A stretch of DNA of 64,000 nt, taken from Eledone cirrhosa (lineage: Eukaryota). Positions 54,744-55,487 of this stretch are shown here, in pieces. The translations under genes and the position numbers were made by a program. The stretch spans positions 26,722,001-26,786,000 of the forward strand of contig OZ024763.1 in NCBI GenBank assembly GCA_964016885.1, written 5' to 3'. The notes under the pieces are model-generated. The model saw only the letters and a list, made by a program, of their open reading frames with translations. It was not told the origin of the DNA and did not search any database. How positions within the stretch are numbered: position 1 is the stretch's first letter; every line of letters starts with the position of its first letter.

Positions 54744-55487
54744 ATTATAATGAAATGACAGGAGGCTGGATTTGTGTAAATCCTTGAAAGGTTTATTATA
54801 CTATGATCATTTCAATGACCGGGTTCCGTATGAATCCGGTGATATCATCAGGTATTCGAAATATAATACGTGAATGTAATAGGTAAAATCCATGGGGCTG
54901 AAAATCGAGACCCGAGGGCGACCGCTATTCTGTTCCTTCAACCTCAGCCGGTCGCCCTGGAGTGACGTGGCTAAATTTTATAGTATGCTACTACCGGTCA
55001 GATGAACGAAAACAGAAAGAGATGGGAGCATAGGTTAACGTCGATCCCATGACACAAGGTAAAAGAAAACTTTCTGTTTTCGTTCATCTGACCGGTAGTA
55101 GCATACTATAAAATTTAGCCACGTCACTCCAGGGCGACCGGCTGAGGTTGAAGGAACAGAATAGCGGTCGCCCTCGGGTCTCGATTTTCAGCCCCATGGA
55201 TTTTACCTATTACATTCACGTATTATATTTCGAATACCTGATGATATCACCGGATTCATACGGAACCCGGTCATTGAAATGATCATAGTATAATAAACCT
55301 TTCAAGGATTTACACAAATCCAGCCTCCTGTCATTTCATTATAATATTTAACTCCGTAATAGCACCACCAACTACAAAAACAAAGACGGTTGAACTGCTT
55401 TACGTTGAGTACTCTCTATATTATTGCATTACGATTGACCATACGGAATAGACCAGCTCTATACAGTGGTGAACCTCAAACCTGAAT
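54744..55487. mobile_element. Inverted pair of 276-bp arms (54744-55019 / 55070-55345) plus a ~140-bp tail, between TA tracts
   Basis: Arms read as exact reverse complements by eye; each carries a hammerhead. Confidence 0.92.
55234..55291 (+). ncRNA. Type-I hammerhead ribozyme motif; mirror copy at 54798-54855 on minus
   Basis: ATAC CTGATGA T ATCACCGG..CCGGTCAT T GAAA TGATCA TA GTAT; intact core and palindromic stem III. Confidence 0.82.

Follow-up and report, generated by a model that had tools for sequence, protein, structure and literature searches.

Animal genomes contain thousands of hammerheads of the kind discussed here. According to Cervera and de la Pena (2014, PMC4209133), the minimal hammerheads of metazoan Penelope-like elements (PLEs), a type of retrotransposon, have a helix I of 4-5 bp, a long helix II and a palindromic helix III, with a highly conserved G10.1-C11.1 pair, and dual motifs are described on opposite strands, about 100-700 bp apart. 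The same source gives Drosophila, rotifers, shrimps and mosquitoes as carriers of variants with a small palindromic helix III, and reports no activity of the minimal motifs as monomers and low activity as dimers. As regards the elements themselves, an inverted 5'-truncated copy, a one-sided tail of 30-40 bp and a bias for (TA)n are described by Craig et al. (2021, PMC8557442), who name the formation of tandem and inverted PLE insertions as unresolved. Arkhipova et al. (2013, PMC3846280) present head-to-head as the most frequent PLE arrangement, propose self-priming as its source, and mention antisense small RNAs from Penelope copies; what PMC6765202 and PMC8969392 report agrees with this pattern.

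Two further systems are close to the one analysed here. In the account of Frangieh et al. (2024, PMC11167929), the purified protein of a Poseidon PLE cuts and extends both strands of an AT-rich target, starts reverse transcription at two sites, which define the tail, and is predicted to be a dimer; the Poseidon hammerhead is stated to cleave only when the protein is present and to be dispensable for insertion in vitro. Non-LTR retrozymes are defined by Li, Clavereau and Pollet (2026, 10.64898/2026.07.22.740005) as tandem repeats of which two or more consecutive units bear a hammerhead.

Here we analyse an inverted pair of short hammerhead-bearing sequences in Eledone cirrhosa (GCA_964016885.1, contig OZ024763.1), within a stretch of 64,000 nucleotides hereafter called the window. 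Its arrangement is one already described for PLEs, and in that respect the locus is ordinary. Little importance attaches to it for its ribozymes or dsRNA, opposite-strand pairs having been described in 2014; its value is that of one clean, young example of how PLEs form tandem and inverted insertions. Our main reading, to which we give a probability of roughly one half, is that of a young non-coding PLE-end insertion into (TA)n, made of two differently truncated copies placed head to head, likely by reverse transcription primed on two strands.

Structure of the inverted pair

The locus consists of two element ends placed head to head between two (TA)n tracts, with both hammerheads pointing outward from the centre (Table 1). 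The original prediction of 276-bp inverted arms around a 50-bp spacer is borne out exactly, as the arms are perfect reverse complements with 0 mismatches. From the predicted cut site to the 3' end there are 58 bases in the left copy and 198 in the right, and the core starts of the two opposite-strand hammerheads are 387 bp apart. Outside the two TA tracts the flanks have only TA in common, whether compared directly or mirrored, and the TA target masks any target-site duplication, none being readable at the pair. In all frames the stop-free stretches of the insertion reach at most about 60 codons; it holds no ORF, and all frames end shortly past the hammerhead core.

Table 1. Features of the inverted pair and of the tracts that border it
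Feature	Position	Strand	Remarks
Left (TA)n microsatellite	54548..54743		likely insertion target; junction with left copy at ATTATAAT
Left arm	54744..55019	-	276 bp; 3' end 58 bases past the hammerhead cut, no extension
Left-copy type I hammerhead	54798..54855	-	mirror of 55234-55291; predicted cleavage after 54802
Spacer	55020..55069	-	50 bp; probably the natural upstream sequence of the left copy, as suggested by few records
Right arm	55070..55345	+	276 bp; non-coding element end, pseudo-LTR-like
Right-copy type I hammerhead	55234..55291	+	CUGAUGA core, 4-bp stem I, ATGATCAT; predicted cut after 55287
Extension, right copy only	55346..55485	+	140 bp, tail-like; repeat-family sequence in all four runs
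Right (AT)n microsatellite	55486..55526		likely insertion target

The pair had been called the youngest-looking of the window. Nominally this holds, with 0/276 mismatches against 2/460 in the inverted pair at 47856, but the difference carries no statistical weight (Fisher p 0.53). The ATGGGA..TCCCAT stem that had been pointed out in the spacer is present, but its stability is at chance level. Indeed, as a significant structure this hairpin was rejected: as RNA it has a z of -1.6, with 15/200 shuffles equally stable, and as DNA 19/200. Also rejected were miRNA-type Rfam matches at 54972-55117 and 55523-55655, which are sub-threshold and merely reflect perfect hairpins.

The architecture is that of a PLE: a type I hammerhead near the 3' end, a head-to-head truncated copy, a dispersed multi-copy family, and (TA)n on both sides. 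As in the described inverted truncated PLE copies, the arrangement is head to head, one end carries an extension, the target is TA and no target-site duplication is readable; it differs from them in that there is no ORF, the extension measures 140 bp instead of 30-40, and the spacer apparently belongs to the copy that lacks the extension. With PAc, the Poseidon of Anolis carolinensis, as characterized in PMC11167929, it shares a hammerhead shortly upstream of two alternative 3' ends and an AT-rich target; the PAc ORF is described as starting inside its hammerhead, whereas here the frames close soon after the core. Like the animal non-LTR retrozymes of 10.64898/2026.07.22.740005, the element is short, non-coding and multi-copy, has a type I hammerhead and probably depends on a PLE enzyme; unlike these head-to-tail tandems it is an inverted pair without a tandem unit, and an inverted copy is all that was found in the window. 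It does not have the form of a MITE either, as the right arm continues into 140 bp of family sequence and the inverted repeats are not at both termini.

No ORF for a PLE reverse transcriptase or GIY-YIG domain is linked to the insertion in the window: 0 of the 98 ORFs scanned matched GIY-YIG, and the RT-type matches are at 40688 and 43431-44420, more than 10 kb away. Such an ORF need not be present in a truncated copy. PLE membership is thus likely on the basis of the architecture, and we hold this identity with high confidence. The RT-type pieces are a zf-RVT fragment at 40688-41362 (E 5.9e-7), an RVT_1 fragment on the + strand at 43431-44420 (E 8.6e-9) that is interrupted by a TA tract, and a second RVT_1 piece on the - strand at 43617-44012 (E 1.1e-5). 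We take the fragments at 40688-41362 and 43431-44420 to be LINE-like.

A variant of the minimal hammerhead

On the + strand, stem I is formed by 55234-55237 and 55288-55291, and the core by CUGAUGA (55238-55244), GAAA (55276-55279) and the triplet AUA. The conserved core of the minimal hammerheads (C3-A9, G12-A14, A15.1-U16.1, H17) is therefore entirely present. The palindrome at 55279-55286 comprises the TGATCA that had been noticed before together with A15.1/U16.1, and AUGAUCAU is a perfect 8-nt palindrome in the helix III region. Stem-loop II measures 31 nt; it opens with U·U (10.1/11.1), followed by two pairs, a C·C mismatch and then a 5-bp helix, helix II consisting of this 5-bp helix and of 2 and 3 further pairs.

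The motif had been described as intact. This is right for the core, the 4-bp stem I, the palindrome and the position of the predicted cut, and fails for stem II, which opens with U·U and not with G10.1-C11.1. The likeness to metazoan PLE minimal hammerheads is otherwise close: the motif is of type I, with a 4-bp helix I (within the 4-5 bp of the described motifs), a long helix II, a palindromic 15.2-16.2, and an opposite-strand partner 387 bp away. It departs from them by the absence of G10.1-C11.1 (replaced by U·U, or by an extra U and then A-U), by the C·C in helix II and by the length of its palindrome, 8 nt. U10.1·U11.1 is reported in PMC3088659 as a known natural hammerhead variant and as the mismatch best tolerated at that place. 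In the window, U·U also opens stem II of the hammerheads at 56392 and 56401, and those at 29146 and 42127 have a similar layout, with U at 11.1, a short helix, C·C and a long helix. With its U·U the hammerhead is a variant, which need not mean that the motif is dead. The dimeric PLE hammerheads reportedly treated by Lunse et al. in 2017 may already contain this variant.

A filter that combined the core, the palindrome, a 4-bp stem I and a stable stem II retained 3 sites in the window (both arms and 29146) and 0 in 150 resampled windows. With Rfam, no family reached its gathering score across the window, and hammerhead models were absent from the 39 weak matches over 54700-55800. At 49272-49296 there is also a minimal hammerhead core with an extra base and a G10.1-C11.1 pair, which has no stem I.

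A young copy of a dispersed family

Words of the stretch were found in 15 public runs from 11 studies, half or more of them in 6 runs. Among the 23 runs listed, reads or contigs of four (X1, X2, X7 and X21) were aligned to 54970-55484, those with a small share being set aside; no RNA run is among the 23, so that these data have no bearing on expression. Family records number 3058 of 12,467,656 raw reads in X21, and 2006, 16 and 6 contigs in X2, X1 and X7, respectively. In X21, 241 family reads have at least 99% identity to the locus and 1101 have less than 90%. The sequence is a multi-copy, diverged family. Exact patterns had no match in either the metagenome or the viral contigs (0 loci in each). 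With a loose hammerhead pattern, 72 loci were obtained from the metagenome contigs, which we ascribe to chance, as 0/72 had a 4-bp stem I or a BLAST match to the element. Within the window itself, BLAST and nhmmer found no diverged relatives of the element elsewhere.

The family is most conserved at the hammerhead. Depth peaks over it (55240-55311) in X1, X2 and X21, and only 2 of the top 40 of the 98 differences fall within 55223-55310, none of those 40 being in the core. The change 55246 A>G, seen in 715 of 1280 X21 reads, preserves one pair of stem II, in the form of G·U; the other change, 55262 G>T, is located in loop II. Contig ends at 55286 and 55292 were considered as cleavage signs and rejected, since each is 30 bases away from a variant (55316 and 55262, respectively) and they correspond to graph breaks.

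The copy belongs to a young subfamily, as there are X1 contigs that show no difference from the window at 55221-55292 and 55286-55484. Furthermore, both arms share alleles at 55206, 55219 and 55220 that most family reads lack (at 55206, 561 of 680 X21 reads differ), and minority alleles common to the two arms point to one source and one event.

The short 3' end of the left copy looks natural for the family. In X21, 205 reads, which may represent a single locus, leave the element at 55347 for a microsatellite, two bases from the equivalent of the left-arm end; in four other hammerhead copies of the window the TA tract begins 34, 35, 48 and 51 bases after the cut, and in the long copy at 56392 it begins 102 bases after it. 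Pile-ups of X21 read ends at 55345-55348 were discarded as a sign of such an end, as the library is of the RAD type and the sequence has a TTAA at this very place (55348). At the other end, some contigs run 40-80 letters beyond 55484, and 55485 may not be the family end.

The spacer and the origin of the pair

The copy to which the spacer belongs bears directly on how the pair arose. From left to right across the spacer, the summed X2 depths, which are not copy numbers, are 9820, 5283, 4647 and 2060, the last value being about that expected for an end at 55068. Within the 55060-55077 bin the X2 depth falls by half. One contig of this run departs into a GAAA-type repeat past 55068, and another (record 9) is cut off at 55070, leaving 8 letters unmatched; among the loose ends listed, none lies before 55020. 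In X21, depth is about 4 at 54988-55023, 2.1 at 55024-55041 and 0 at 55042-55059, and about 4 raw RAD reads, possibly from one locus, pass from the left arm into the spacer. The junction 55069/55070 is crossed by no read or contig among the records listed for the four runs. These records are few, and they suggest that the spacer probably belongs to the left, extension-less copy. The left copy would then measure 326 bp, made up of its arm and the spacer, and the right copy 416 bp, made up of its arm and the extension; the two would meet in a new junction at 55068-55070. With the spacer present only in the left copy and the extension only in the right one, neither could in that case have served as template for the other.

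We propose that a PLE protein acting in trans would cut the (TA)n tract and prime cDNA on both strands from two start sites. The left copy (54744-55069, -) would start at the short 3' end of the family and the right copy (55070-55485, +) at the longer one, with a single RNA or locus as the source of both. A template jump or end joining would then link the two 5'-truncated cDNAs at 55068-55070, the A at 55069 being possibly untemplated, and each copy would carry a dimer-type hammerhead as a passenger. Overall, we regard priming from two ends as about an even bet. More tentatively, and with somewhat less confidence than that, the junction itself could be a trace, left in the genome, of a single cut at which both strands primed reverse transcription from two start sites, the cDNAs then being joined by a template jump. 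An argument of this kind for inverted PLE copies was not found in the open-licence literature searched. If true, two-ended priming stands beside self-priming, or replaces it, as a source of head-to-head PLE repeats.

Self-priming is the explanation offered in PMC3846280 for head-to-head PLE palindromes, and it would need no further assumptions for the identity of the arms. Here a cDNA begun at the long end would have covered the arm and the spacer before turning back, to serve as its own template as far as 55345; a deletion would then have removed one side of the centre, unless the spacer is really that of the right copy. The ATTATAAT at the left end offers a possible microhomology to the TA tract, and the neighbouring pair at 56325-56468 has a simple fold-back anatomy. 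On the other hand, in a one-step fold-back one copy must contain the other, which is contrary to our reading of the spacer: with the spacer placed in the extension-less copy an additional asymmetric deletion is required. The spacer hairpin is no stabler than shuffles, and the second family copy ending at 55347 suggests that the end is fixed rather than random. We therefore consider fold-back unlikely at this locus. If the ownership of the spacer, as we read it, proves frequent in young pairs, one-step self-priming cannot fully explain them; yet the pair at 56325-56468 speaks against any single rule, since there it is the copy with the long end that retains stem I through the spacer, as fold-back predicts. 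That pair (56261-56468 in full) has its cores at 56392 (-) and 56401 (+), a palindrome ACAATTGT, an 8-bp spacer and 2/58 mismatches, and stem I is kept only by the left, long-ended copy.

The inversion could also postdate the insertion, if the self-complementary TA tract gave rise to template switching or if two family copies recombined. This possibility would fit with the inverted duplications without hammerhead that accompany TA tracts in the window (8352/8449, 8774-8919, 10879-10960, 53620/54151). It seems improbable to us: if the spacer is that of the left copy, this copy has element sequence which is absent from the right one and could not be copied from it, and both outer ends coincide with borders between element and microsatellite. 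About as improbable is that all 742 bp move as one piece, as a palindromic and non-autonomous element of a MITE-like or retrozyme-like kind. A neighbouring family does have two copies that share their palindrome centre (55524 and 50716), and the spacer is multi-copy in X2; but coverage breaks at 55068-55070 in X2 and X21, one of the inverted repeats is not at a terminus and there is no tandem arrangement of the unit. Moreover, two X2 contigs switch strand at other points (55256/55300 and 55270/55445), so that other copies have other inversions. Finally, the perfect match of the arms, the central junction crossed by none of the records listed and the microsatellite-rich window are what an assembly or library fold-back artefact would also give. 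Such an artefact is very improbable, since the mirror stops exactly at the element end with flanks beyond the TA tracts that are unrelated except for TA, and since older, diverged pairs (84% identity at 6925-7106, 2/58 at 56335/56401, 2/460 at 47856) are real DNA in this genome.

Predicted behaviour of the ribozymes

The suggestion that this is a PLE-type minimal hammerhead, perhaps dependent on a dimer, is in line with our models: the palindromic stem III points to dimer use, and the monomer is predicted to fold unfavourably, the hammerhead being less stable than the minimum-energy fold by 7-10 kcal/mol, according to the constraint applied. As a dimer joined through the palindrome the hammerhead is computed at -26.4 kcal/mol, against -33.9 for the free dimer, a penalty of 7.5. 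By the same calculation the penalties of 29146(+) and 42127(-) are 5.4 and 2.8 kcal/mol, and these hammerheads have stems I of 8 bp where those of the pair have 4 bp. The pair had been proposed as the best candidate for an active ribozyme; judged by folding energies, which exclude tertiary terms and allow only a rough ranking, 29146(+) and 42127(-) would be better placed. These two related solo hammerheads span 29134-29202 (+) and 42067-42139 (-), with TA tracts 51 and 48 bases after the cut.

The two ribozymes of the pair cannot partner each other within one transcript because they lie on opposite strands, and an active dimer would require two separate sense RNAs. A transcript that crosses both arms is predicted to form a hairpin of -563 kcal/mol, in which all 58 of the 58 hammerhead bases are paired in the 276-bp duplex; duplex and ribozyme would therefore be mutually exclusive in one molecule. 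The expectation that a read-through transcript would form long dsRNA, as a possible ADAR or siRNA substrate, is, according to this predicted fold, physically right if both arms are transcribed together. The hammerhead is predicted to cleave weakly, and only with the help of a second sense-strand RNA or of the element's protein, and not at all in a transcript crossing both arms.

A test for editing by A-to-G mismatches would be confounded because the family DNA reads already show A>G at 18 places. In the X21 reads these are 55246, inside the hammerhead, and 17 other places in 54970-55484, and they would mimic A-to-I editing.

Other repeats of the window

A second family of short palindromic insertions, extended by about 75 bp on one side only, is also associated with (TA)n. 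Its copies lie at 55524-55731 (+), 50630-50846 (-), 23137-23350 (+), 37780-38003 (-) and 38590-38789 (-); two of them share one centre, two share another and one has a third. The motif filters found no hammerhead core in this family. At 38442-38569 an unrelated palindrome has an extension that starts similarly.

Besides the pairs discussed above, 47856-48315 and 48434-48893 form a 460-bp inverted pair with 2 mismatches and a microsatellite spacer, in which a decayed hammerhead-like GAAA-CCGG-TC motif lies near 48770. The head-to-head pair at 6925-7106, with 84% identity between its halves, is decayed; it lies between TA tracts and has a damaged hammerhead core at 7017.

Local inverted duplications without hammerhead, mostly beside TA tracts, occur at 8352-8521, 8774-8919, 10879-10960, 7329-7450, 7543-7724, 53620-54188 and 56477-56755, and possibly result from template switching at these tracts. 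At 53790-54130 a sequence of about 170 bp occurs twice, in direct and near-identical copies of which the second has (TAGA)n at its end; we would guess it to be a LINE 3' end.
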